Shown here piece by piece: positions 1 through 60,350 of a stretch of DNA of 64,000 nucleotides (positions are counted from its first letter, which is position 1; every line of letters starts with the position of its first letter). Both the position numbers and the translations under genes were made by a program. Under the pieces are notes generated by a model. That model was not told where the DNA came from, did not search any database, and worked only from the letters and a program-made list of their open reading frames with translations. Source of the stretch: Malacoraja senta (Eukaryota); assembly GCA_038087875.1 (NCBI GenBank), contig CM075992.1:11658001-11722000 (forward strand). Reading direction: 5' to 3'.

Positions 1-132
1 AACGAAGCCATGCATGCCTGCAGATTGGCTGAGGCCATTGACCCGCCAGACAGTCAGCGTGATTCGGACACTAAATCTATCAACCTGACTGGGTTCAATA
101 GACCGCGACCCTGATCTGATAATGTTCAATTT

Positions 133-2520
133 GTGCCTCGGCCCGGACCCGCATCTGGCGGTGTAACCCCCAAATGCCCGAACTGTAACTACATACATCC
201 CAGGCAGTCGCCATGCCCTGCCTTTGGTAAAGCCTGCAACTATTGCAAGAAATTAAACCATTTCTCTGCTGCCTGTCATTCTCGTGGGAATGCGCCACGA
301 GCTTCCAGACCTAACCTAAATATGCTGATGCAAGCTGATAACATGTATAGTTCTCCGTCCTTGCTCGACGCTGCCCACGCTGACGATCCAATTATCTCGC
401 AAGGGGAGGCGAGTGTGCATTCACTCCTTCACGCACCTGGCCGGCTACCCGATCCAACTGTCCTGATAACTGTCAACAATTCCAGCTTCCACGCTAAGCT
501 CGATACTGGGGCAAAAGTGAATGTAATGTCAATAAGCCATTTTAAGAAGATAAGGAATAATGAGCTAATGATTGCAGACCGTTCCACCCTGCACGCCTAT
601 GGAGGCGAGGTGCTGAGACTGCTGGGAAAAGCTACTTTCACTTGTGTGCTGAAAAAGACAACGCGTGCCTTGACTTTTTATGTTTTGAACTCTGACTGTG
701 TGACTCTGTTGGGCAACCAGGCATGCCAGGATCTGGGCCTGGTGTTGTTTGACAGAACGGTCCACAAGGTGATGATATCGGTAGACCCGGTAAAGGAATA
801 CCCAGACCTGTTTAATGATGAACTGGGCAAGCTGCCTATTACCTACAAAATTGCTACTGATCCAAAGGTGTTACCTGAAATTCGTGCACCACACAGAGTG
901 TCTCACGCCATGAAGGACAAAGTCGAGTCCATGTTGAATGACATGGTCACCATGGGGGTGCTAGAGGCGGTCAGTGAGCCCACCGAGTGGGTGTCCACCA
1001 TGGTCACCATGGGGGTGCTAGAGGCGGTCAGTGAGCCCACCGAGTGGGTGTCCACCATGGTCACCATGGGGGTGCTAGAGACGGTCAGTGAGCCCACCGA
1101 GTGGGTGTCCACCATGGTTGCCACGTTAAAAAAGGACAAGAATGAAATTCGCGTGTGTATCAACCCTAAAGACTTGAACCTTTCCATCAGGCTCCCCCAC
1201 TACCCCATGAGGACAGCTGAGGATGTTGCAGCCCAGGTCGGACAGGCCACCATCTTCTCTGTCCTCGACGCAAAAAGCTCGTTTTGGCAGATACCACTGG
1301 ACAAGGGGTCCTCGGATCTGACCACGTTTTCTACACCGTTCGGCAGATTCAAGTTCCTGCGAATGCCATTCGGCATCAACTCCGCCAGCGAGGTGTTCCA
1401 GAGGACCATGGAACAGCTGTTCGCTGGCCTCCCATGCACCATCATTGTTGATGACATCCTGGTCTACAGGAAAGACGTGGTGGAGCATGACCAGAACCTA
1501 CGACGTGTCCTGGAGCGGGCACGACAGATAAACCTCAAGCTCAACCCCAAGAAGTGCAGATTCCGGGTATCCGAGGTCACTTACGTTGGCCATGTTTTCA
1601 CTCCTGCCGGACTCAAGCCCGATCCTTTGAAAGCTGCCGCTATCACGGAGATGCCGGCCCCCACCGACGTGCTCAGACTACAGCGCTTCCTGGGCATGGT
1701 GAACTATCTTGGGAAATTTATTCCCAACCTCAGCGAACTGAGCTCGTCCCTGCGACAACTGACTAGAAAAGACACCGCCTGGGCCTGGTTCCCGCAGCAC
1801 CAGCAGACTTTCGATGCTTTAAAGTCTAAGCTGGTCAGCACTCCTATTCTGACGTTTTTCGACCTGAAGCGCCCCATCACTGTCACCTGTGATGCCTCGC
1901 GATTCGGGCTCGGCGCAGCCTGCCTGCAGTCCTCTGCAGATGGCTCCCTGCTTCCTGTCTCCTATGCCTCCCGCACCATGACCGACACCGAACAACGCTA
2001 TGCACAGATCAAAAAGGAGCTGCTCGCCGTCGTTTTCGCCTGCTCTAAGTTCAAGGACTTTCTTTTCGGGAATTCTTTCACGGTCGAGACTGAGCACCAG
2101 CCATTGGTGACCATCCTGAATAAGCCGATCCATGCCGCACCTGCCAGGCTGCAACGTATGATGATGCAGCTCCAGCGTTTCGACTTCACCATTGTCTACA
2201 AAAAGGGTACTGATATGCACGTTGCGGACACTCTCTCTCGCGCCCCTCGCGCTACCTGTGATCGACACCCCTACGAACGGGAAGACCTTCTGGTGCTAGG
2301 CGTTGACTTTGTCCCCACTAAGCAGCTTCAGTGCCTAGCCGAGCATACTGCCGCCGACCCCGCTCTGCAGCGACTTTCTTCATTGATAAAAAGGGGTTGG
2401 CCGAGCACCTGCTCAGAGGCTGATGTCCAGAACAACAAGACCACCGATTCCGATTTCTCAACACAAGCTGCTGCCTCGAATGCTGGAGCCTGCTTCCGTC
2501 CAGACGCGCATTCAGGCTAA
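133..2520 (+). pseudogene. pol: Gypsy gag-pol: zinc knuckle, aspartic protease, reverse transcriptase, RNase H; truncated after GWP by a deletion
   Basis: CNYCKKLNHFSAAC knuckle, LDTGA protease, LDAKSSFWQ / RMPFG / IVDD RT motifs, CDASRFGLGA and KELLA RNase H motifs. Confidence 0.92.
942..1118 (+). repeat. In-frame triple tandem repeat of 57 bp inside RT
   Basis: Unit catggtcaccatgggggtgctagaggcggtcagtgagcccaccgagtgggtgtccac starts at 942, 999 and 1056; peptide MVTMGVLEAVSEPTEWVST x3. Confidence 0.97.
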
Positions 2521-3087
2521 GCATGACATCCAGAGACGGTCACATGATAGACCGTGCAAGCCTCTCAAGCCTCTGCTGCCTGGACAGGCCATTCGTCTAC
2601 ATACTGCTAGCGGATATTCCCGTCTGGCCACCGTGGTTGGCATTGCCGATGCGCCTCGTTCGTACCTTGTGGACTTTGAAGGTACTGTCTACCGCAGGAG
2701 TCGTCAGCACCTGCTTGCTGTACAGGACCCGCTCCCGCCGGCAGCCGGACCTTACGCTCCGCCGCTGCAGTTCCAGCCATCCGCTGCTGATCCTGTTGCC
2801 GGCCCCTGCATGCCTCAGTCCCCTCGCGTGTTGGGTTCACCTCCGCGTGGGTCGCCCATTGCTAACCATTTTTCTAGCTCTCCTGCACGTCTGTCCCCCT
2901 TGCCGCTTTCTGTTTCCCCTCCGGCGTCGTCGCCTCCGGGTCTGGGTCTTTCTGGTGAGGGGGGGGAAGGGTTGGTCCGTACGAGCTCGGGCCGTGTCAG
3001 CAAGCAGCCTATTCGGTATGGTGATTTTGTTTGTCGTTGCCATAGTTACCCACCATGTTTAATCTTCTAAGGGGAAGGATGTAGATG

Positions 3088-3802: not shown

Positions 3803-3997
3803 GTTTATGCATGCAACCAATCACATAGCTACCTCCCCACTACTAACCCCGCCTTAAGTATCATTTATAATAACGCCTGCTTCTCCTTCTGCGCAGTACA
3901 GTAGCAGACTGGAGTCCGTGACTACTCATGTGATGTTTAACTCTGTATACTTATTAAAGACTATTATAATGCTACACGTGTGTAATGACTATTTACA

Positions 3998-10907: not shown

Positions 10908-11339
10908 CATATCCCCTGACTCCACTAGCCCCCAGAGCCCTATCTAACTCTCTTAAATCAATCCAGTGACTTGACCTCCACTGCCCTCTGTGGCAGGGAA
11001 TTCCATAAATTCACAACTCTCTGGGTGATAAAGTTTTTTCTCACCTCAGACTTAAATGACCTCCCCTTTATTCTAAGACTGTGGCCCCTGGTTCTGGACT
11101 CGCCTAACATTGGGAACATTTTTCCTGCATCTAGCTTGTCCAGTCCTTTCATAATTTTATATCTTTCTATAAGATCCCCCCTCACCCTTCTAAACTCCAG
11201 TGAATACTAGCCTAGTCTTTTCAATCTTTCCTCATATGACCGTCCCGCCATCCCAGGGATCAATCTCGTGAACCAACGCTGCACTGCCTCAATCACAAGG
11301 ATGTCCTTCCTGAAATTAGGAGACCAAAACTGGTCTCTG

Positions 11340-12542: not shown

Positions 12543-13650
12543 TAAAACATAGAAAAATGGAAAATAGGTGCCATTTGGCCCTTGGATCATGGCTGATCAT
12601 CAACAATCAGTAACCAGTGCCTGCCTTCCCCCCATATCCCTTGATTCCGCTAGCCCTAGAGCTCCATCTAAAGGGCCTGTCCCACTTACGCGACCTTGGC
12701 TCGCAAATTACGCGACCTCGTGATCGCTTCAGGCATATGGACACCGTATGGCCGCGCGGGGCCGGTCCCACTTAGAAGCGCAGAGTTGTGCGGGGCTGGT
12801 CTCGACATCGCTCGGGGCTCCGAAATTCTGTCAGTGGCAAAAATCTTCGCGCACCAATGGCCTGTCGGCATGCAGGCGCATTGCGGTCGTACGCAGCGTA
12901 TTGACGTCGTACGCAGCTTCTTGACGGCGTACGCAGCATCTTGACGGCGTACGCCTAGCGCATGGCGTTGCGCGATGACGTCACCGCCCGGCGTGGCGTT
13001 GCGTGATGACGTCACCGCCCGACGCCATGCGACGCCCAAATTCAGTCGGCCCGCCGCCTGCCCAGCTGATTGGTAAGCATGACGCAAATGACGTCAGGCA
13101 CGAACTTAGCGTGTACTTAGCGCGTAATTAGCGCGATCTTCGCGTGAACTCCACTTCCGTTTGGTCGCGCCAAACGCACGCAATCGCATTCAAGTGGGAC
13201 AGGCCCTTAACTCTCTTTTAAATTTATCCAGTGAATTGGCCTCCACTGCCCTCTGTGGCAGAGAAGTCCACAAATCACAACGCTCTGGTTGAAAAAGTTT
13301 TTTCTCATCTCAGTTTTAAATGGCCTTCCCTTTATTCTTAGACTGTGGCCCCTGGTTCTGGATTCCCCCAACATTGAGAACATTTTTCCTGCATCTAGCT
13401 TGTCCAGTTCTTTTATAATTTTATATGTTTCTATAAGATATCCTCTCATCCTTCTAAATTCCAATGAATACAAGCCTAATCTTTCAAATATTTCCTCATA
13501 CGACATTCCTGCCATCCCGGGGATTAACCTCGTGAACCTACGCTGCATTGCCTCAATAGCAAGGATGTCCTTCCTCAAATTAGGAGACCAAAACTGCACA
13601 CAATACTCCAGATGTGGTCTCACCAGGATCCTGTACAACTGCAGAAGGAC
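12543..13650 (-). mobile_element. CR1 LINE 3' fragment, interrupted by a MITE and bounded by the Gypsy insertion
   Basis: ORF 13207-13668 LVRPHLEYCVQFWSP...RTRGHSLRI; CR1 3'UTR at 12543-12670. Confidence 0.9.
12672..13207. mobile_element. PIF/Harbinger-type MITE
   Basis: Perfect 16-bp TIR agggcctgtcccactt / aagtgggacaggccct, TAA target duplication 12669-12671 and 13208-13210, CpG-rich interior with short tandem repeats. Confidence 0.92.
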
Positions 13651-13862
13651 TGTAGATGATATGTGCATGTACCTTTAACATAGTGACCTCACCACTCCTA
13701 ACCACTCCCCACATCACCAGTATAATTACAACCGTCCCACCCAGTTCTCTCTCTCTGGTTCCAGTGACAGACCACGGACAGCTAGGGCAGAAACGTATGT
13801 GTATAATGTGTAGTATGAATAAACAGTAGTAAAGAAACAGTGCGTTATGACACATCTTTACA
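13651..13862 (+). repeat. 5' LTR
   Basis: tgtagatg...tttaca, aataaa signal, direct repeat of 15554-15765. Confidence 0.97.
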
Positions 13863-15472
13863 TGGTGTCAGAAGTGGGATTCGAACCCACGCCTCCAATT
13901 GCCGCGTCCCAGTTGCAGCGCATGATGCTACAGCTCCAGCGTTTCACGTTTAAAATTGTGTATCGCAAGGGCAAGGACATGTTCGTGGCCGACACGCTGT
14001 CCCGCGCACCACTAACGTCCACTGATCGCCATCCATATGAATCGTCCGACCTGATGGTGCTTAACGTCAACATCGTGCCTTCCCAGCAAATGCAGTCCCT
14101 GGTCAGCAACACTGCCAAGAACCCTGCCCTGCAGCAGCTTGCCGACGTCATCATGCAGGGCTGGCCAGACCGTCGTTCATCCTTGCTGCCTGGGGCCATG
14201 CCCTACTTCCTGGTCCGTGACGAGCTCGTGCTGCACGACGGCGTGGTCGTGAAGGGACACAAGTTTGTTGTGCCTGCTGCCCTGCAGGACCAATACTTTC
14301 ATACCGCCCACGGCGGTCATCCTGGGGCCGAGGCCACCCTGTCTCAGGCCCAGAGTATGTTCTACTGGCCCGGCATGGCCCAAGACATCCGGGAGAGGGT
14401 CTCCGCTTGCTCGGTCTGCAATAGCCTCGCTCCCCATCAGCAACGGCAGCCGCTTCTGCAACAGCCTGCCCCCGAGCTGCCCTGGATGACCGTCACCGCT
14501 GACATTTTTGAGTGGCGTGGAAAGCATTTCCTGGTTCTTGTGGAGTCATACTCCAGCTGGTTCGAGGTGGACCAGCTGCACTCCCTAACCTCTTCGGCCG
14601 TTATCGGCAAGCTGCGCCGCCACTTCGGAACCCATGGCACCCCGGCAAGTCTTCAATCGGACAACGGCAGCCAGTTCTCGAGCGCAGAATTTCGGAGTTT
14701 CGCTGCCAGTTGGAACTTCCGACACTACACCAGCAGCCCAGAGTACCCTCAAAGCAACGGGTTGGCAGAGCGCGCTGTCCGCAGTGCTAAGGACTTGCTG
14801 GAACATTGTAGACTGTCCCATTCTGATTTTTACTTGGCCCTCCTCAATCTTCGAAACATTTGCCGCGACACTGCCTTGGGCTCCCCAGCTCAACGGCTGA
14901 TGTCTCGCACTACGAGACCTCCGATCCCGGTGACCCAGCGGTCCCTTGTTCCCTCGGTCCTCCGTCCCGCTGCCGTCCAGGAGCGCATTGCCCTCAAACA
15001 AGAAATCCAACAGCGCTCCCACGACAAGTCTTGTCGTCCTCTCCCGCCTCTGCTCTCAGGCCAAGTCGTCCGAATGCAATCCCCCTCCGGTCACCCCAGG
15101 CTTGCCATCGTCGTCGGTACTGCTGGTTCGCCGCGGTCCTACCTTGTCAACCATGACGGTACCATTTACCACCGGTCCCGGCAACATCTGCGGCTTGTTA
15201 ACAAGCCACCACCGCCGCCTGCGGATCCCTTTTCCCCCCCATTGTCGACTACACTGCCTGCCCCCCCGGCCAGTCCTCCCTCGCCTGCCCGTCTTCCCGC
15301 TACTGCTCCTGCTTCCCCTGCTCCTTCTCCGTTTTCTCGTTCTCCTCCCGGTTCCCCGGTTCTCTCCCCTGCGCCGGCTCATGCTCCGCCTGCAGAAGGG
15401 GGGGATGGCGAAATGCGTACCCGGTACGGGCGGGTGTTCAGGCCGCCTATCCGTTATGGTGAAGTTGTTTAA
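13862..15472 (+). CDS. Gypsy integrase ORF (RNase H tail, HHCC zinc finger, DDE core, Pro-rich tail); upstream in-frame ATG at 13847
   Basis: Uninterrupted frame; H..GH...CSVC, TADIF, SDNGSQF, SNGLAERAV motifs. Confidence 0.85.
   Translation: MVSEVGFEPTPPIAASQLQRMMLQLQRFTFKIVYRKGKDMFVADTLSRAPLTSTDRHPYESSDLMVLNVNIVPSQQMQSLVSNTAKNPALQQLADVIMQGWPDRRSSLLPGAMPYFLVRDELVLHDGVVVKGHKFVVPAALQDQYFHTAHGGHPGAEATLSQAQSMFYWPGMAQDIRERVSACSVCNSLAPHQQRQPLLQQPAPELPWMTVTADIFEWRGKHFLVLVESYSSWFEVDQLHSLTSSAVIGKLRRHFGTHGTPASLQSDNGSQFSSAEFRSFAASWNFRHYTSSPEYPQSNGLAERAVRSAKDLLEHCRLSHSDFYLALLNLRNICRDTALGSPAQRLMSRTTRPPIPVTQRSLVPSVLRPAAVQERIALKQEIQQRSHDKSCRPLPPLLSGQVVRMQSPSGHPRLAIVVGTAGSPRSYLVNHDGTIYHRSRQHLRLVNKPPPPPADPFSPPLSTTLPAPPASPPSPARLPATAPASPAPSPFSRSPPGSPVLSPAPAHAPPAEGGDGEMRTRYGRVFRPPIRYGEVV
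13863..13897 (+). promoter_or_regulatory. Extended primer-binding site, complement of the 3' ~35 nt of tRNA-Leu(CAA) including CCA
   Basis: tggtgtcagaagtgggattcgaacccacgcctcca is the reverse complement of tggaggcgtgggttcgaatcccacttctgacacca, the vertebrate tRNA-Leu(CAA) 3' end as recalled. Confidence 0.9.
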
Positions 15473-15553
15473 CTGTTTGCTCACCTGCTCGTAGCGTATG
15501 AGACGTGGTCGCCCTGTCACTTCGGTATTGCTTATTATTTCCAAGGGGAAGGA

Positions 15554-15765
15554 TGTAGATGATATGTACATGTACCTTTAACATAGTGACCTCACCACTA
15601 CTAACCACTCCCCACATCACCAGTATAATTACAACCTTCCCACCCACTTCTCTCTCTCTGGTTCCAGTGACAGACCACGGACAGCTAGGGCAGAAACGTA
15701 TGTGTATAATGTGTAGTATGAATAAACAGTAGTAAAGAAACAGTGCGTTATGACACAACTTTACA
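15554..15765 (+). repeat. 3' LTR
   Basis: Direct repeat of 13651-13862. Confidence 0.97.
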
Positions 15766-16064
15766 GGACCAGTCTCAACTGGGCCGTGGTGAGACCACAT
15801 CTGGAGTTGAGGGGGAGTTAATTGATTTGGGGTAGATGGGTGCCAGGAGGTGAGTCACTAAGTGGGTTATGATTAGTGTTATGGTTGGAATCATGTCACC
15901 ACATTCAAGTCATACATTCATATAGCATAAGAACAGGCCATTCAGCCCACCGCATCCTCACTGACCAGTGGCTACACATCTGGTATTAATCCCATTTCCA
16001 GCACTTGGCCTATAACCTGCTCTACCTAGGTGTTTGAAGTCCTCATCCAAACATTTATTAAATG

Positions 16065-20929: not shown

Positions 20930-21929
20930 AGAATTTACTTTATGTCTTAGGAGTCAAGGACTAACAGGACCGCCAGATCTAAAAGGACCTTTAAAGTTCT
21001 TTTAAGAGCTTTAAGGCCATTCGAAAACCGAAATGGACGGAGAACATTGGAGAAAATCGGGATCTTTGTATTGTTTATTTTTTTATTTTATTAATTTTAC
21101 TAGTCATTGTTATAATCTGTATACTCACACCTAACTACAACTAATACTTATTTAATATCCACATTACTACTAAAATTATTAACATTAACTTCTCTCATAA
21201 AAATTTAATACTGTATTGATGGATAACAATGATTAATAATTAATAGTCTTTGATTAAGGTAGAGATGAATTACATACTTAGATTATATAAGAGGATATGC
21301 AAGAGGTAAATTTGCCTAGGTCATAATAAAACTTGACGGTTTTCCTCTTTGATTTTCAAATCAAAATTAAATTTATAGATTTAGCGAAGAAAATAATATA
21401 ACATGTAGAGAACAATAACGTTGTGAATTTTTGCTGTTCTTGAGTTTGTCTGCAGGGATACGTGCTTGTAAATGTACGCACATGGGTATATATACATATT
21501 TATATGTATGTATGGTGTGTGTGTGTAGGTATGGGTATGTATATAAGTTTGTTACTCCCAAAGAAGTTATTTGAATGTTAGAAATAATCTTTTTTTTTTT
21601 TTCTTCGGGCACGGAGCTGGGAATTTTTTTTTTTACAAAGGCTACGGAAGTCTTTAGAATTCTAGCCACGTTAGTGTGGCTATCACTAACTACACTAATT
21701 GTAGATGTAGTTCTTTTTCTTTCACCCTTTACTAATCAACTCTATCACTTCTTTCACTTTAAATATTTTTATAACTCAACGTTTGAATGGAAAAACAAGT
21801 CTAATACAAGGAGATGTGTTCGGAAGAGCGATGTATATGATTTTATATTCATCTATCTGAAGCTCGGTAGCAGGATCAGGTTCTACGTGTTGTACTCTCT
21901 GCTCGGCTATAGACCACCTTAGAAACAAT

Positions 21930-24900
21930 ATGCAAGATGTTAATATGACAAGAGGGGGCCAGGGAATAACATTTTGTAGCTGGAATGTCAAGGGAATCAA
22001 TGAACCAATTAAGAGAGGTAAAGTTTTGGCACATCTAAACCTAATCAAAACAGATATAATATTCCTCCAAGAAACGCACCTTAAAAAGGAATCCCAACAT
22101 AGACTTAAAGCAAAGTGGATCGCTGAATCATATCATTCCTCTTTTTCCCATAAATCCAGAGGAGTTGCAATATTAATTCGTAAAGGAATACATTTTACGA
22201 ACTCTTCAACAATAGTGGATATAGATGGTAGATATATTATATTAGTAGGAGAGTTAAATGGAGAAAAAGTGATTCTTCTTAATGTATATGGGCCTAACTT
22301 TGATAACCCCATGTTTTTTAATAAAACATTTAACAAAATTCCTGAATTTACACAATATAAATTAATAATTGGAGGAGACTTTAACTGTACATTAGATTCA
22401 TACTTAGATAGATCTTCAAGGCAAAAAAAAGTAAAATCTCAATCAAGTGTATTTTTAAATTCATTTATTAATACCACTAATATTAAAGATGTCTGGAGAA
22501 TAGAAAACCCAACTGGACGGGAATATTCATTTTACTCACCAGTACATAAAACATACTCAAGAATAGATTATTTTTTAGTTGACTCTACGTTTATCCCATT
22601 TATTTATAATTCAAAATACCATAACATTATAATCTCAGATCACGCACCTGTAACATTCATGATTAAATTAAATGGAATGTCCGAGAAACAAACATATTGG
22701 AGATTTAACCCACAAATTTTGAACGAAAGATCATGCCAGGAATATATTATTAAACAGATTCAAATATTTTTTGAGGTAAATGACAATCCTGACACACCTA
22801 CTTCTCTTATGTGGGAAACGTTTAAAGCGTTTGTTCGTGGTACATTGATTTCCGCTCAAGCATTTTATAATAAAGAGAACAGGATTAAACAACAAATATT
22901 GGAAAGGGAAATCAAGCAACTAGATATAGAAAATGCGAGAACGCCATCTATTTTAAAACATAATAAAATTGCTGTATTGAAATATAAATTAAATAAAATG
23001 TATTCAGAACAAGTAATAAAACTTTATCAAAAAACCAAACAATTACATTTTGAATTTGGAGACAAACCACAAAAACTATTAGCACGTCAGTTACGAAAAA
23101 TGGAAGGGGAAAAAATAATTCATAAAATTAGAACAGAGACAGGAGAATTATTAAAAATGCCCAAGGACATAAATGATAGATTTCTCCAATACTATCATAA
23201 CCTTTATTCAACTAAAACCGTAGGACAATCAGAAGGAATAGCAGATTTTTTACTAAAATGTAATTTAAAAGGTTTAGATTCAAACGATAGAGAATTATTA
23301 GAAAGGGAGATTACCATAAAAGATATTGAGGAGTCAATCGGCTCTTTAAAAAATGGGAAAGCAGTAGGACCAGATGGTTTAGGCTCCGAATTTTATAAAA
23401 AATTTCATGACCTGCTTTGTCCACGTTTACAAAGGTTGTACGAGTATATCTATACTCAACAGAAACTTCCAGACACCTTAAATGAATCTATAATAACACT
23501 TATTCCTAAAGCTGATAAAGATCTGGAAGACCCGGGATCATATAGAGCAATCGCACTTTTAAATACAGATCAGAAAATATTAACTAAAATACTAGCGAAT
23601 AGATTAAGTACAATGATGAATAAATTAATACACCCTGATCAAACAGGCTTTATTCAGAAACGGTACTCATATTATAACCTAAGAAGATTATTTAATATTA
23701 TATATTCCAAGAGAAATATTAATGAAGATCTAGCAATAATCTCACTTGACGCTGAAAAAGCATTTGATCAGGTCGAATGGTCTTATTTATTTTCGGTGAT
23801 GGAAAATATGCAGTTAGGGGAGAAATTCTGTACATGGATAAAACTGTTATATACAAATCCCACGGCTAGAATATTTACAAACCAAAGGTTGTCATCTAAA
23901 TTTAGTCTATCTAGAGGTTGTAGACAAGGATGCCCGTTATCTCCATTATTATTTGCGCTTGCTATTGAGCCACTTGCAGAAAGAGTCAGGGGGCATCCGG
24001 AAATACACGGATATAACACAAAGGACACAGTGAATAAGATTTCTCTATATGCAGATGATGTATTAATTTATATTACAAAACCAGAAATTAGTATTCCAAA
24101 CTTATTAAAGCTAATAACCCAATTTGGTTCACTTTCAGGATACAGAATAAATTGGAATAAAAGTGAAATTATGCCAATAAGGGAATATAACAAACAGATA
24201 ATACAACAATATCCATTTAAAATAGTAAAGGAAAAATTTAAATATCTAGGTATTTATATAACTAAGAAATATACATCATTATTTAAAGCAAATTTTCCAC
24301 CATTACTAAATAAACTACATAAGAATATTCAATACTGGAAAACACTTCCTATCTCAATGGTAGGCAAAATTAATGCCATAAAAATGATTTTTTTACCGCA
24401 AATATTATACCTGTTTCAGACATTACCGATATATCTGGCAAAAACCTTTTTTAAAAAACTGGACTCTATTGTTAATGATTTTATCTGGGATTATAAGAAT
24501 CATAGGATAAACAAAAGACATTTGTGTAAATCAAAAATAAATGGAGGCTTGGTTTTACCCAACTTTTTGTTTTATTTCTGGGCAGTTAATATTAAAAATA
24601 TGAATTTCTGGTTGGAAGAAATAGATCATCAACCAGACTGGTTAAAAATGGAAAAGGAAGATTGTTTACCTTTTGATATCGGTTCGATTTTATTTGCTAC
24701 GTCTAAATTAAACAAAAAAATTTATAGGGAAAACCCTATAATATTTAGTGCTATACGAATTTGGAAACAATTAAAAAGGACATTAAAATTAGATAATTTA
24801 TCACTTTTTCTTCCAATTGTGAATAACCCTTTGTTTAAGCCTTCATGGTTGGACGGGGGTTTTACACAATGGAAGAATTATGGAATTAAAAATATGGGAC

Positions 24901-25745
24901 AACTTTACAAGGAAGGCACTTTTCTGACATTTCAGGAGTTGCAACAGACTTACGGACTTCGAGGAAATGATTACTTCAGATATCTTCAACTTAGAGATTA
25001 CGTAAAATCAAATACTCAAAATTTTAGAATTAGAAATTCAGAAATTCTTGATGAATGTTGGAACAAACATCCTAATACAGAAAAATTAATATCTTATATA
25101 TATAATATCTTATTAGACAGTGACATTCCATCGACGGACTTACACAGACAAACATGGGAAAAAGAATTAAATCAAATAATAACGAAAGATACTTGGGAAG
25201 AAAGTTTGCAACACATACATCAATGTTCATTAAACGCCAGACATTCTCTAATACAATTTAAAGTAATACATAGGTTACATTATTCTAAAACAAAACTACA
25301 TAAAATTTTTCAACATATCTCACCTATATGTGATAAATGTCAACATTTAGAAGCTACCTTATCTCATATGTTTGCAAACTGTATAAAAATTAAACAATTC
25401 TGGGTAAATATTTTCAGTATAATATCTAAAGTAACCAGCACACAATTGGACCCAGACCCAAAATTAATAATACTTGGAATATTAGAATTAAATCAAACAT
25501 TTAGAACAACACAAAGAAACTTTATTGATTATAGTTTAATAACAGGAAAAAAATTAATTCTAAAATTTTGGAAAGGCCCTACGACCCCCACAATCAAAAT
25601 GTGGATTATAGAAATGACGGAGACCTTAAACGTGGAAAGAATCAGACTCTCCCTGTTGGACAAACAGGAATTATTCATTGGAACATGGTCTCCTTTTATT
25701 GATTACCTAAAGGGTCAGAACAGTTCAGCACAGGAACCTGACTAA
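21930..25745 (+). CDS. L1 ORF2p, intact 1271 aa (APE endonuclease, RT, CCHC)
   Basis: SWNVKG, FLQETH, GGDFN, SRIDYF, SDH; LDAEKAFD, RQGCPLSP, YADD; CDKC...H....C. Confidence 0.97.
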   Translation: MQDVNMTRGGQGITFCSWNVKGINEPIKRGKVLAHLNLIKTDIIFLQETHLKKESQHRLKAKWIAESYHSSFSHKSRGVAILIRKGIHFTNSSTIVDIDGRYIILVGELNGEKVILLNVYGPNFDNPMFFNKTFNKIPEFTQYKLIIGGDFNCTLDSYLDRSSRQKKVKSQSSVFLNSFINTTNIKDVWRIENPTGREYSFYSPVHKTYSRIDYFLVDSTFIPFIYNSKYHNIIISDHAPVTFMIKLNGMSEKQTYWRFNPQILNERSCQEYIIKQIQIFFEVNDNPDTPTSLMWETFKAFVRGTLISAQAFYNKENRIKQQILEREIKQLDIENARTPSILKHNKIAVLKYKLNKMYSEQVIKLYQKTKQLHFEFGDKPQKLLARQLRKMEGEKIIHKIRTETGELLKMPKDINDRFLQYYHNLYSTKTVGQSEGIADFLLKCNLKGLDSNDRELLEREITIKDIEESIGSLKNGKAVGPDGLGSEFYKKFHDLLCPRLQRLYEYIYTQQKLPDTLNESIITLIPKADKDLEDPGSYRAIALLNTDQKILTKILANRLSTMMNKLIHPDQTGFIQKRYSYYNLRRLFNIIYSKRNINEDLAIISLDAEKAFDQVEWSYLFSVMENMQLGEKFCTWIKLLYTNPTARIFTNQRLSSKFSLSRGCRQGCPLSPLLFALAIEPLAERVRGHPEIHGYNTKDTVNKISLYADDVLIYITKPEISIPNLLKLITQFGSLSGYRINWNKSEIMPIREYNKQIIQQYPFKIVKEKFKYLGIYITKKYTSLFKANFPPLLNKLHKNIQYWKTLPISMVGKINAIKMIFLPQILYLFQTLPIYLAKTFFKKLDSIVNDFIWDYKNHRINKRHLCKSKINGGLVLPNFLFYFWAVNIKNMNFWLEEIDHQPDWLKMEKEDCLPFDIGSILFATSKLNKKIYRENPIIFSAIRIWKQLKRTLKLDNLSLFLPIVNNPLFKPSWLDGGFTQWKNYGIKNMGQLYKEGTFLTFQELQQTYGLRGNDYFRYLQLRDYVKSNTQNFRIRNSEILDECWNKHPNTEKLISYIYNILLDSDIPSTDLHRQTWEKELNQIITKDTWEESLQHIHQCSLNARHSLIQFKVIHRLHYSKTKLHKIFQHISPICDKCQHLEATLSHMFANCIKIKQFWVNIFSIISKVTSTQLDPDPKLIILGILELNQTFRTTQRNFIDYSLITGKKLILKFWKGPTTPTIKMWIIEMTETLNVERIRLSLLDKQELFIGTWSPFIDYLKGQNSSAQEPD

Positions 25746-50319: not shown

Positions 50320-50835
50320 CAATAGACAACAGACAATAGACAATAGATGCAGGAGTAGGCCATTCAGCCCTTCAAGGCAGCACCGCCATTAATGTGATTA
50401 TGGCTGATCATCCCCAATCAGTACCTTGTTCCTGCCTTCTCCCCATATCCCCTGACTCCGCTATCTTTAAGAGCCCTATCCAGCTCGCTCTTGAAAGTAT
50501 CCAGAGAACCGGCCTCCACCGCCCTCTGAGGCAGAGAATTCCACAGACTCACAACTCTCTGTGAGAAAAAGTGTTTCCTCGTCTCTGTTCTAATTGGCTT
50601 ACCCCTTATTCTTAAACTGTGGCCCCAGGTTCTGGACTCCCCCAACATCAGGAACATGTTTCCTGCCTCTAGCGTGTCCAAACCCTTAACGATCTTATAT
50701 GTTTCAATGAGATGCCCTCTCATCCTTCTAAACTCCAGAGTGTACAAGCCCAGCCACTTCATTCTCTCAGCATTTGACAGTCCCGCCATCCCGGGAATTA
50801 ACCTTGTGAACCTACGCTGCACTCCCTCACTAGCA
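50320..50835 (-). mobile_element. CR1 3' fragment, 5'-truncated
   Basis: EGVQRRFTRLIPGM...QRVVSLWNSLP; (tattgtc)n tail on minus. Confidence 0.92.
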
Positions 50836-51929
50836 AGGCAGTGGGCACTAACTGTAGACAGGTGTACACTGGTGTAGACAGTCAACATTCTGTAGACGGT
50901 GGTGGAGACAGTGTTTACCAACCACAAATGTTCTCGCAAGTTCTGACCAATTGATGCATGTGGCCAAGTGCAGGAAGGAATCTCAGTCCTGGGTTTTAGG
51001 AATGACTTCTTGTTCCCCAGGGCCTAAGACCATAAGACATTGGAGAAGAATTAGGCCATTCAGCCCATCAATTCTACTCTGTCATTCAATCATGACTGAT
51101 CAATTCTTCTCTTTCATCCCCATTCTCCTGCCTTCCCGTAACCAAGGATGTCAAAGGCACATTTGGTCTAAACCGCCCTTGCTCAGTAACTCTTTGAATA
51201 TTTCATGTCTAGACCACACCTTCTTACAAGTTATGAGAAATTATTATTAATATGAGGAATGTGAACATATTAACAAGACCCACAGATCAGGATGAAACTT
51301 TTATTCAATAAAGGCCTGGCATTTTAAAAAATATTGCATTTCCATGTATCAGTACACAGTAACAAGGTGTAACCAGCTTGCCCTTCCTGCTTCCTCCGTA
51401 TGAGCCGGTGAAACCTCCTTTGTCTCACCTGCGGCAGTTACAGGGCAAACCCGGGGCACTGGGAACCACAGCCGTGCTCAGCACTGGCTGCATTTTCATT
51501 CATCAGCCTCAGGCAAAGGCAGGGTTGAGTGTTCCATCCCACACTGTCTTTGAGAGGGTGACAATGGGAGGTCCATCCATGAACCACTCCACCCAGATAA
51601 TGTGGTGGTGAGATGGTGGTGGGTATCACTCAATGGTGACGGCTATTAGCTGGTGCCGAGGGGCTGGAGGGAACCGGGAGGAGATGGGGTCCCATGTGAA
51701 GGCTGCCTTGTGGTGATTCTCTGCAGAGGAACTTGCACTGGGCCTGACTCAGGGCTGAGCAGCGGCCTGGGCCAGACACTGGCATCTTACCTGGTGACAA
51801 GTGTGTCCTGTTCAAGCTTTCTTACCGTTCGGCCTTTCACCCTCGACACTGCCTAGAGAGAGAAGCTCATCTGTGTCTCACATGTCCCGAACCAATCAGG
51901 AGATGTGGTTGTCAGGGAGGGAGAGAGAA

Positions 51930-56653: not shown

Positions 56654-59600
56654 AGATACTAGCTCAGTTGAAATCATACAACACGGACATTTCGTTTCTA
56701 CAGGAAACGCATCTTAAACATCAAGATCAGACGAGACTGAGGGCGAACTGGATAGGACAAACATTTCACTCTTCATTCACCTCCAAATCTAGAGGCACTG
56801 CAATCATCATTTGTAAAGGAATTCCATTTAAATCAAAGAATACTATTTTAGATAAGGGAGATACCTTATAGTAGCAGGAGAGATCAATAATACGCCAATT
56901 ACGCTGGTAAATATGTACGCGCCCAATTTCGATAACCCTCAATTTTTTAATAAAATTCTGAATATAATTGCAGAATTTAATTTTCAAAATGTTATAATTG
57001 GAGGAGACTTTAACTGTGTTTTAGACCCTTATCTAGATAAATCGATGCAAAAACAAAAAGGTAATATGAAATCTAAAACCAGTGAACTTTTACATACATA
57101 TATGGAAAACACAAATATAGCAGATGTGTGGAGGATTGCAAACCCGACGGGAAGGGATTATTCGTTTTACTCAACGGTGCATAAAACATACTCACGGATA
57201 GACTACTTTCTTGTGGATACAAAATTAATTCCGCACACTATGAACGCTAAATACCACACTAATGCGATCTCAGACCACTCTCCGTTAACTTTTGTTTTAA
57301 AACTAGAAGGAATGTCTATGAATAAATCGTTCTGGAGGTTTAACTCGCAAATTTTAAAAGACCCACAAGGGAGTATATATCTAAAAAAACAGATGGATCT
57401 ATTTTTTGAGATAAATGATACACCAGATATTTCCCCCACGCTATTATGGGAATCCTTCAAAGCATTTATTAGAGGAGTCATTATTTCATTCCAAGCTTAT
57501 CAAAATAAAAATAATAAGAATGAACAAAGACATTTAGAAGAACAAATAAAACAATTAGATACAGATAATGCTAAAGATCCAACTATGGATAAACATAATA
57601 AAATCCTTCTGTTGAAATTCAAGCTAAATAAATTACTGTCAGAGAAAGTTATAACATTATTTCAAATCACAAAACATGAACACTTCGAATTCGGGGACAA
57701 ACCCCACAAACTCCTAGCACGGCAACTGAAAAAACGGGAAAAAGAGAATGCAATATTAAAGATTAAATCAGACAGAGGGGAATTACTAACACTACCCAAG
57801 GATATCAATAAAAGATTTGCTCAATTTTACCAGAATCTATACACATCTAAAACGTTAATAGACAATAATAAAATCGCAGAATTTTTAGATAACTGTAACC
57901 TACCACAATTAGAACTGATGGAACAAGAGGAACTGGGAGCACAAATTACTTCTAAGGAGATAGAAGACACAATAAAAACACTAAAGAATGGAAAAACACC
58001 AGGACCAGACGGATTCAGTAATGAATTTTATAAATCTTTTTATGACATAGTTACTCCACGATTACAGAAAATGTATACACATGCTTTTAAACAGCAAAAC
58101 TTACCTGAAACACTAGCAGAATCAACGATCATATTAATACTTAAAAAATATAAAAATATAGAAGAACCAGGATCATATAGAGCTATAGCTTTGTTAAATA
58201 CCGATCAAAAAATAATAGCGAAAACACTAGCTAGTAGACTAAGCAGGTATGTTAGTAGACTAATAAATGAGGATCAAACAGGATTTATACCTAAGAGACA
58301 TTCATTTAATAATTTGAGACGTTTGCTTAACATAATGCACTCACATAAATCTCAGGACCAAGAGTTATCTATCATCTCATTGGACGCAGAAAAAGCGTTT
58401 GATCAAGTAGAATGGGACTATATGATTAAAGTATTGCAAAAATTCCAATTGGGAGAGAACTTCATTGCATGGATAAAACTATTATATAACAAACCTACGG
58501 CTAGAATACTAACTAATAATATATTATCCTCGAAATTTGAACTATCAAGGGGCAATAGACAAGGATGTTCATTATCACTGCTGTTATTTGCTTTAGTAAT
58601 TGAACCCCTTGCTGAAAAAATAAGAACACAGATGGATATTTACGGTTATAATACAAAATATTCAAATAACAAAATATCCTTATATGCCGATGACGTACTA
58701 TTGTACATCACAAAACCACAAATTAGTATACCAAATATATTAAATTTAATTGAGGACTTTGGATCCTTTTCAGGATATAGAATAAACTGGAACAAAAGTG
58801 AAATTATGTCGATAAAACCAAAAGACTCAACACACCTCAGGAAATTCCCCTTTAAAATAGCTACAGAAAAATTCAAATATTTGGGAATTGAAATTACTAG
58901 AAATTACCAGGATATGTTCAAAGCCAATTATAATCCCTTACTTAAGAAATTAAATAATATGACTAAATTCTGGAAAACACTTCCGATGTCCTTAATAGGC
59001 AGAATAAATGCTATAAAAATGATTTTCTTACCACAAATCCTATACCTAATTCAATCAATACCTATATATCTCCCAAAAAAGTTTTTCAAAAAATTGGACT
59101 CAGACATTACAAATTTTATATGGGATTATAAATCCCATAGAATACAAAGTGCACACCTTAATAAACGAAAACAGTTGGGGGGTCTCGCGCTCCCTAACTT
59201 TATGTATTATAAATGGGCAGTAAATATTAAAAATAGGATTCACCTGCTGGACAATTCTGCCCAGCAGGTGGACTGGATTATAATGGAAAAAGGGGACTGT
59301 TCCCCGAGTAATATAGGAGCGATTATTCTCTCTCCAATAAATTTGAATAATAAAAATTATAATAAAAAACCAATTATAAATAGCACAATTAGAACATGGA
59401 AACAAATAAAACAGAATCTAAAATTAAGAAACCTATCTCTCTCAATAACAATAGTTAATAACCCATCGTTTAAACCTTCAACCATAGACAAATCATTTAT
59501 ACAATGGGAAAGAATGGGAATCAAAACGCTCGAAGATCTGTATGAATTGGGAAAATTACTATCATTTCAACTACAACTGAAATATAATCTGAAAAATAAA

Positions 59601-60350
59601 CAATATTTTAAATATCTACAAATTCGTGATTACCTGAAAAAATACACAAAAGACTATCATAATATGCCTCCCGACTTACTAGATGAAGCAATGAAGACAA
59701 AGGCGGAATCAGCTAATCTAATATCGTACTTATATAATATCATTTTAAACATAGAAATACCCACAACAGAAGGAATTAGAAGAGACTGGGAACAAGAATT
59801 AGCTATAAAAATTTCAAAAGAGAGCTGGGATAACCACTTACTACAGGTGCATAAATGTTCGATCAACGTACGACATACGCTCATCCAATTCAAAACATTA
59901 CATAGACTATATTATTCAAAAACTAAATTAAATAAAATCTTTCCTAATGTTTCACCAATCTGTGATAAATGTCTATGTCAAGAAGCTACCATAGCGCATT
60001 CTTTTGTTTTTTGTACAAAAATCCAAAAATTCTGGTATGAAATATTTGATATTTTCTCAAAATTAATTAAAATAAAACTGGTACCAAAACCAGAATGGAT
60101 CATCTTTGGAATATCGGAAGGTATCCCTGAATTAAACGTGTATCAGAAGAACTTATTCAATTACGGGCTAATAATGGGAAAAAGGCTCATACTTAAATTC
60201 TGGAAAAATGCGCCCACACCAACAATAAAAATGTGGACATCAAATATGTTGGAAACATTACATCTGGAAGAGATGAGATTCCTATTAGCAGGGAAAGCAG
60301 ACCAATTCCAAAAGACGTGGTCTACGTTTCTGGACCTATTACAAGCATGA
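56654..60350 (+). pseudogene. L1 ORF2p lacking the N-terminus, frameshift near 56860, then open for 1145 aa
   Basis: GGDFN, SRIDYF, SDH, LDAEKAFD, YADD, CDKC...H....C; paralogous to 21930-25745. Confidence 0.93.

Follow-up and report, generated by a model that had tools for sequence, protein, structure and literature searches.

Reverse copies of mature primer tRNA-Leu(CAA) joined to internal sequence in Gypsy retrotransposons of the skate Malacoraja senta

Results

Structure of the element

The window, that is the whole stretch of 64,000 nucleotides analysed here (Malacoraja senta, assembly GCA_038087875.1, contig CM075992.1, positions 11,658,001 to 11,722,000), contains a short Gypsy copy in which the 5' LTR is followed by a reverse copy of the 3' end of a tRNA and then by the remainder of pol (Table 1). 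The paired LTRs with TG...CA ends, the polypurine tract, the short target duplication and the position of the RNase H end upstream of integrase are those of a Ty3/Gypsy element. Longer relatives with RT, RNase H and integrase are annotated as Gypsy or K02A2.6-like, and the longer protein relatives are Gypsy polyproteins from fish, corals, molluscs and amphioxus. The family may belong to the Mag-like clade.

Table 1. Positions of the Gypsy copy under study, its parts and other elements in the window
Feature	Position	Strand	Remark
Gypsy copy, whole element	13651-15765	+	Paired 212-bp LTRs
Left target-site duplication	13647-13650	+	GGAC; 4 bp, family norm 5 bp
5' LTR	13651-13862	+	212 bp, TG...CA ends
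Reverse copy of the CCA-ended 3' end of tRNA-Leu(CAA)	13863-13897	+	35/35 identity to the complement of the host gene template
Mismatch facing the variable-loop C of the tRNA	13898	+	
3-base microhomology; deletion breakpoint	13899-13901	+	Common to tRNA complement and pol
Pol remainder	13899-15472	+	RNase H end and integrase domains; matches relatives ~96% from 13899
Integrase zinc-binding domain	about 14270-14425	+	Within pol remainder
Integrase core	about 14501-14749	+	Within pol remainder
Polypurine tract (PPT)	15543-15553	+	
3' LTR	15554-15765	+	212 bp; 5 differences from 5' LTR, all private to this copy
Right target-site duplication	15766-15769	+	GGAC
Older interspersed repeat	13213-13650 and 15766 onward		The Gypsy copy is nested in it
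Further copies of the older repeat	about 10948-11307 and 50486-50845		
Copy of a second Gypsy family	115-3080		Protease-RT-RNase H; integrase internally deleted
57-bp triple tandem duplication in RT of the second-family copy	942-1123		
3' LTR of the second-family copy	from 3080		Interrupted by other sequence
LTR-like end again	near 3975-3997		
Two long LINE ORF2 frames	21861-25745 and 56856-60350		Endonuclease and RT; 1294 and 1164 codons, ~70% alike

The tRNA copy directly adjoins the 5' LTR, and the 3' LTR does not contain it. It replaces the native primer site of 7 to 9 bases, passes A58 of the tRNA (13881, correctly copied) and the T-arm and enters the variable arm, which confirms the match of about 35 nt to tRNA-Leu(CAA) described in the initial annotation. 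Its length can be read as 35 or 39 tRNA bases owing to the three bases in common with pol. Scaled on a leader-bearing natural copy used as a ruler, the deletion amounts to about 2.55 kb; in agreement with the earlier observation that gag, protease and RT are absent, leader, gag, protease, RT and most of RNase H are gone. A six-base microhomology (ccaatt) between the tRNA and Pro-Ile codons of pol had also been proposed and does not hold. At this site pol reads K-P-I-H-V-A-A in 15/15 relatives that hold it and the true overlap is 3 bases, so that the Pro-Ile match is a coincidence; the Pro-Ile codons of the P-I-A-A read in the window copy are tRNA-derived. The mismatch at 13898 may reflect misincorporation opposite m3C, or an untemplated base added at the stop.

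The junction occurs once among 42 scored matches, a set biased by its query and therefore not used for rates, and once among 33 in the mapping of family junctions; many copies with one common junction, as in an amplified non-autonomous derivative, were not found.

The host tRNA and the template

Exact-pattern and similarity searches of the species' own 1.94-Gb genome yielded three matching tRNA-Leu(CAA) genes, a variant of the gene and a decayed copy. These were assigned by hand reading of the sequence: ARAGORN misnamed the real genes, its predictions at the junction loci were spurious long-intron calls, and on the window it found no tRNA gene. All five genes and pseudogenes contain an intron, lack CCA and have a C at the variable-loop site facing 13898. 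The match beyond 18 nt, on whose host origin the initial annotation hinged, thus corresponds to host tRNA-Leu(CAA) genes.

Two captures, L040 with 75 bases and L268 with 87 bases, cross the exon junction without an intron. L040 has mismatches near tRNA position 26, and L268 holds all 87 tRNA bases with no error at the modified sites. Since the captures are spliced and CCA-ended whereas the genes carry the intron and no CCA, the template was the mature RNA and not a gene. An intron-bearing precursor was considered as the template for L134, which looked intron-like; its downstream bases, however, map to element sequence. The commonest tRNA haplotype among the captures, which is also that of the window copy, has no intact assembled gene identical to it base for base. 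The variant gene (L254) has an altered acceptor stem and variable arm, and no capture among the sets listed bears its variable arm.

The native primer site of the family

A search with a leader motif gave 65 matches, and 30 leader-bearing copies were inspected. The native short primer site was present in 28; the other two are captures in which a 38-base match rejoins at the third (variable-arm) box and then continues into the leader. The long tRNA match is thus absent from 28/30 leader-bearing members, as the initial annotation had required of normal leaders. Among the 28 native copies the site comprises 9 bases in 19, 7 bases in 8, and carries a substitution in one. Two downstream boxes, a T-loop match (5-6 of 7) and a variable-arm match (9-11 of 11), accompany it in 28/28. 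For the commonest leader the predicted pairing energy is −32.0 kcal/mol, compared with −24.1 kcal/mol for shuffles, 14/500 of which reach it, so the third box is modestly beyond chance in this leader. The predicted pairing suggests a short, split, multi-box primer site as in Ty1/Ty3-type replication. A mismatch to the tRNA at position 8 occurs in 8/9 copies of one LTR variant and in 0/19 others. Linkage to an LTR variant is what a site passed on by the element, rather than by the tRNA, should show, and would be indirect evidence for such inheritance.

With a native site of 7-9 bases, even an 18-base 'PBS' in this family is captured tRNA. The assumption of the initial annotation that 18 nt is the normal length is therefore not supported for this family, and its description of the window copy as a double-length PBS is misleading.

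Frequency of the captures

For an unbiased sample of 5' junctions we took the first 90 of 213 LTR-end matches, picked regardless of the downstream sequence. Of these, 57 lead into host flank, 20 into the native leader, 11 into a tRNA copy and 2 into other joins. Captures thus make up 11/33, about a third, of the family's unbiased 5' junctions, and the framing of the window copy as a rare accident is not supported. An exact 17-base match is present in 27 family copies; in none does it continue into the native leader, in 23 it reaches at least 20 bases, and 2 of the copies rejoin at the variable-arm box.

Genome-wide, an LTR end followed by 18 exact tRNA bases was found at 1,269 sites. The first 90 of these span about 40 LTR-end groups; 75 jump into coding sequence (36 sense and 39 antisense), 8 are native-like with leader and gag, and 7 are without a match. 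Control patterns gave 0 matches, compared with 21, 27 and 1,269 for the real patterns. Several near-identical pairs of loci lie 30-60 kb apart (L092/L093, L168/L169, L183/L184, L186/L187 and L054/L055), which suggests tandem segmental duplications or assembly duplicates and a slight inflation of the counts. Captures L097, L100 and L162 belong to the second Gypsy family of the window; they are antisense joins with an 8-base overlap.

Stops and errors along the tRNA copy

The tRNA match ranges from 15 to 87 bases across the captures. Rates were determined on 116 sites selected on ≤18 bases (117 minus one duplicate); a length-selected set, biased by its query, was left out of the rates. In the set of 116, mismatches were found in 14/54 copies at position 19, which faces A58 of the tRNA, and in 15/19 at position 36, which faces the variable-loop C. 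Elsewhere in the tRNA copies the background was 20/830, much of it CpG decay. The errors at A58 comprise three different bases, and 40/54 read-throughs are correctly copied there. When the variable loop was left free in the search, 26 LTR copies read T in 19, C in 5 and A in 2, with C in 3/3 genes. Each of the three gene backgrounds shows the variable-loop error, which takes the form of three different bases at a site that is not CpG. No linkage between errors at positions 19 and 36 was visible (counts 4, 3, 29 and 13). As the commonest haplotype is without an assembled gene, part of the variable-loop signal could stem from a gene missing from the assembly.

Capture ends in the set of 116 fall at ≤19 in 59 cases, at 34-35 in 19 and at 36-48 in 21. 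The last group lies off any known block and counts against reading the ends as modification stops. In the length-selected set, 25/34 copies that reach position 49 end at 49-50, and G37 is mismatched in 4/7 copies that extend further. The 49-base stop coincides with the exon junction, that is with the length of the 3' exon, and tRNA halves could be an alternative source of it.

The stops and errors near tRNA position 58, in the variable loop and near position 37 would be marks of modified bases, the identity of which we infer from their positions. In the available text of two laboratory tRNA-seq studies, stops and errors are described at m1A58, m3C e2/47d, m1G37 and m2,2G26 (bioRxiv 2024.01.30.575011, PMC8062790). 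For zebrafish, the part of the former report at hand gives variable-loop m3C for Leu-CAG and Ser and not for Leu-CAA (bioRxiv 2024.01.30.575011). The initial annotation had offered a hypomodified tRNA or bypass as the ways past position 58. The family data favour bypass in most copies, with at least one error-free full-length copy (L268); in the window copy position 58 was copied correctly, which is compatible with both.

Joins and integration

Of 33 family junctions 32 could be mapped (L069 did not map), 28 as sense and 4 as antisense joins with acceptors scattered over the whole element. In 19 direct joins the mean overlap was 3.6 bases, compared with 0.34 at random; the 13 further joins contain 1-26 inserted bases, which in several cases form a fold-back or a local repeat. 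Exit from the tRNA match occurs at different internal points in 30/32, in each case exactly where the match ends. Other families show an antisense hot spot in RT with a 5-6-base overlap, shared by copies that differ in second breakpoint and in LTR group, and a second hot spot with a 9-base overlap that recurs after 49-base copies. Such recurrence fits priming on a long single-stranded (sense-strand) template. An amplified derivative at the antisense hot spot was rejected on account of the differing second breakpoints; the exception is the L092/L093 pair, a duplicate.

Some copies consist of three or four pieces, and L232, L242 and L243 are patchworks in which internal pieces are inverted and the target duplications are normal. 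The start of one piece of L242 coincides exactly with the native primer site, where a completed minus strand should end. At L211-L250 and the short capture loci, many copies with deletions, whether native or captures, resume at ~3.8-4.1 kb of the 4.6-kb element; this zone, the proline-rich integrase end, is possibly a second plus-strand start or a fragile site. Finally, L366 and L367 show an LTR end, then 3-4 primer-site bases, then an inverted copy of the LTR start.

An exact 5-bp target duplication flanks 12/12 native and 20/27 capture copies. The remaining captures comprise 3 with one mismatch, 2 with 4 bp and 2 with none. The window copy is one of those with 4 bp: the TG..CA ends and the 4-bp duplication noted in the initial annotation are both present and the ends are normal, but a 4-bp duplication, taken there as normal, is atypical of the family. 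LTR-LTR divergence showed no difference between capture and native copies (3.7 vs 3.4, p=0.40) and thus gives no support for an origin from two templates, nor do the differences between the LTRs of the window copy, all of which are private to it.

Discussion

Behind the 5' LTR, the mature primer tRNA-Leu(CAA) has been reverse-copied and fused to pol, and we consider it probable that this copy derives from dead-end plus-strand strong-stop DNA which was rescued by microhomology and then integrated. This builds on the observed template, short native site, stop and error profile, microhomology and normal ends, and it sustains the core of the initial annotation, a reverse transcript of the mature primer tRNA past position 58 that became fused with pol and was inserted with its LTR ends normal. 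As in Ty1/Ty3, the first, PPT-primed plus strand would continue into the tRNA, which is still attached, and RT would halt at a modified base. The resulting tail would be unable to pair with the short native site, and its free 3' end may then anneal by a few bases to minus-strand DNA, giving sense joins as in the window copy, to genomic RNA, giving antisense joins, or to itself, giving fold-backs. RT would complete the two-LTR molecule, which integrase would insert. In the window copy RT likely passed A58, met the modified variable-loop C, inserted A and jumped at the 3-base overlap. As to the joining enzyme, we favour template jumps by RT within the particle.

Alternatively, host end-joining of the polymerase theta type may have joined the tRNA-tailed LTR fragment to another piece of cDNA while both ends were being integrated or afterwards, which would leave the tRNA-copy origin unchanged. 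Theta-mediated joining typically leaves overlaps of 2-3 bases, templated and fold-back inserts, seen here in 13/32 mapped junctions, and patchworks of several fragments with inversions; inserts are likewise produced by RT template switching. However, independent copies repeatedly use the same base at internal hot spots, which fits priming on a long single strand better, and there is no excess LTR-LTR divergence. We therefore regard host end-joining as possible but rather unlikely.

It is improbable that the tRNA copies stem from under-modified tRNA or tRNA fragments in place of bypass, with the loop change due to an unassembled gene or to C-to-U editing. The correct copying of A58 in most read-throughs and the full error-free copy in L268 would agree with under-modified tRNA, as would the majority haplotype without an assembled gene and the 49-base stop at the 3' exon length with an unassembled gene or fragments. 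Against this, the A58 errors to three bases and the loop-C errors to three bases on three backgrounds need a modified template, and the loop site is not CpG.

The view that a sub-lineage has a long primer site and normally carries the long match in its leader, with later and unrelated deletions, is largely refuted and very improbable. The two leader-bearing captures with a 38-base match and the 8/90 genome-wide sites that enter a native-like leader and gag are what it would predict; it is opposed by the spread of match lengths, the three gene backgrounds, the site-specific errors, the 30/32 junctions that leave at different points where the tRNA match ends, and the single occurrence (1/42) of the window junction. 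An assembly artefact or a chance match can practically be dismissed, for although the window junction is known from the assembly alone, hundreds of analogous junctions carry the biochemical error signature and target duplications, and the controls gave no match.

With rescue of the dead-end strong-stop DNA as the preferred reading, several known systems can be compared. Pulsinelli and Temin reportedly described in 1991 retroviral-vector deletions from strand-transfer errors that start at the primer site. The skate deletions resemble these in their start at the primer site and in a plus-strand mis-transfer; the earlier events are said to come from single-round cell culture of a retrovirus, whereas the skate captures are fixed in the germline. 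In the Lauermann and Boeke model for Ty1/Ty3, as far as the available text of the sources goes, the primer site descends from the element itself, and the tRNA-tailed first plus strand is a dead end (PMC5371799, PMC7472051). The skate family would share with the yeast elements the short, split, element-inherited primer site and the copying of the tRNA into a first plus strand that normal transfer does not use. In those partial sources, however, the yeast product stops after 12 bases and accumulates in particles, unlike the skate copies of 15-87 bases, which are integrated.

For HIV-1, the accessible parts of two reports describe over-extended strong-stop products (P1-P5), those past position 54/55 being unable to complete transfer or integrate (PMC13191261, PMC8599865). 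According to the same excerpts their stops are set by tRNA modifications, as they would be here, with m1A58 as the major one, position 37, and run-off to the 5' end on unmodified tRNA. In contrast to this description, products past 54/55 are integrated in the skate via non-homologous joins, and there is an extra stop in the variable loop; 20/27 captures have two LTRs and exact 5-bp duplications.

Helenus TRIMs are, like the captures, non-autonomous LTR elements bearing tRNA-derived sequence; in the portion of the source available, that sequence lies inside both LTRs, is likely a promoter and occurs in amplified families (PMC10886601). Unlike in Helenus or TRIMp3, the skate tRNA sequence is outside the LTR, antisense and single, and varies from copy to copy. 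The stops and errors fall at the same modified sites as in the available text on mim-tRNAseq (PMC8062790) and zebrafish tRAM-seq (bioRxiv 2024.01.30.575011); unlike these laboratory cDNA libraries, as described there, the skate cDNA was made in vivo and fixed in a germline genome. Our literature search, with thin coverage of subscription journals, found no genome-scale report of such tRNA captures; precedents on a small scale are likely. Both the intermediates and the chemistry were known already, and what the search did not turn up is their fixation at genome scale with a readable modification signature.

In a wider sense we lean, if only slightly, towards regarding this genome as a collection of about a thousand cDNA reads of a single germline tRNA, made independently in vivo, from which modification sites and rough levels (m1A58, loop m3C, m1G37 and m2,2G26) would be readable from the assembly alone. 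By the same reading, rescue of dead-end strong-stop DNA would be a main route by which deleted and inverted Gypsy copies arise, while the primer site would be rewritten by rejoining at the downstream box, a possible route to its lengthening or switching. For annotation, it follows that the 'best' 18-base PBS copies are mostly aberrant (75/90 sampled) and that normal sites of 7-9 bases could escape PBS finders. A product described as non-integrating would thus be a common class of germline insertion, and the captures would be evidence at the genome level for Ty1/Ty3-type replication, in which the primer sequence is not inherited, in a Gypsy lineage of an animal. Finally, in vivo tRNA modification would become testable from assemblies, including those of species without tRNA-seq.
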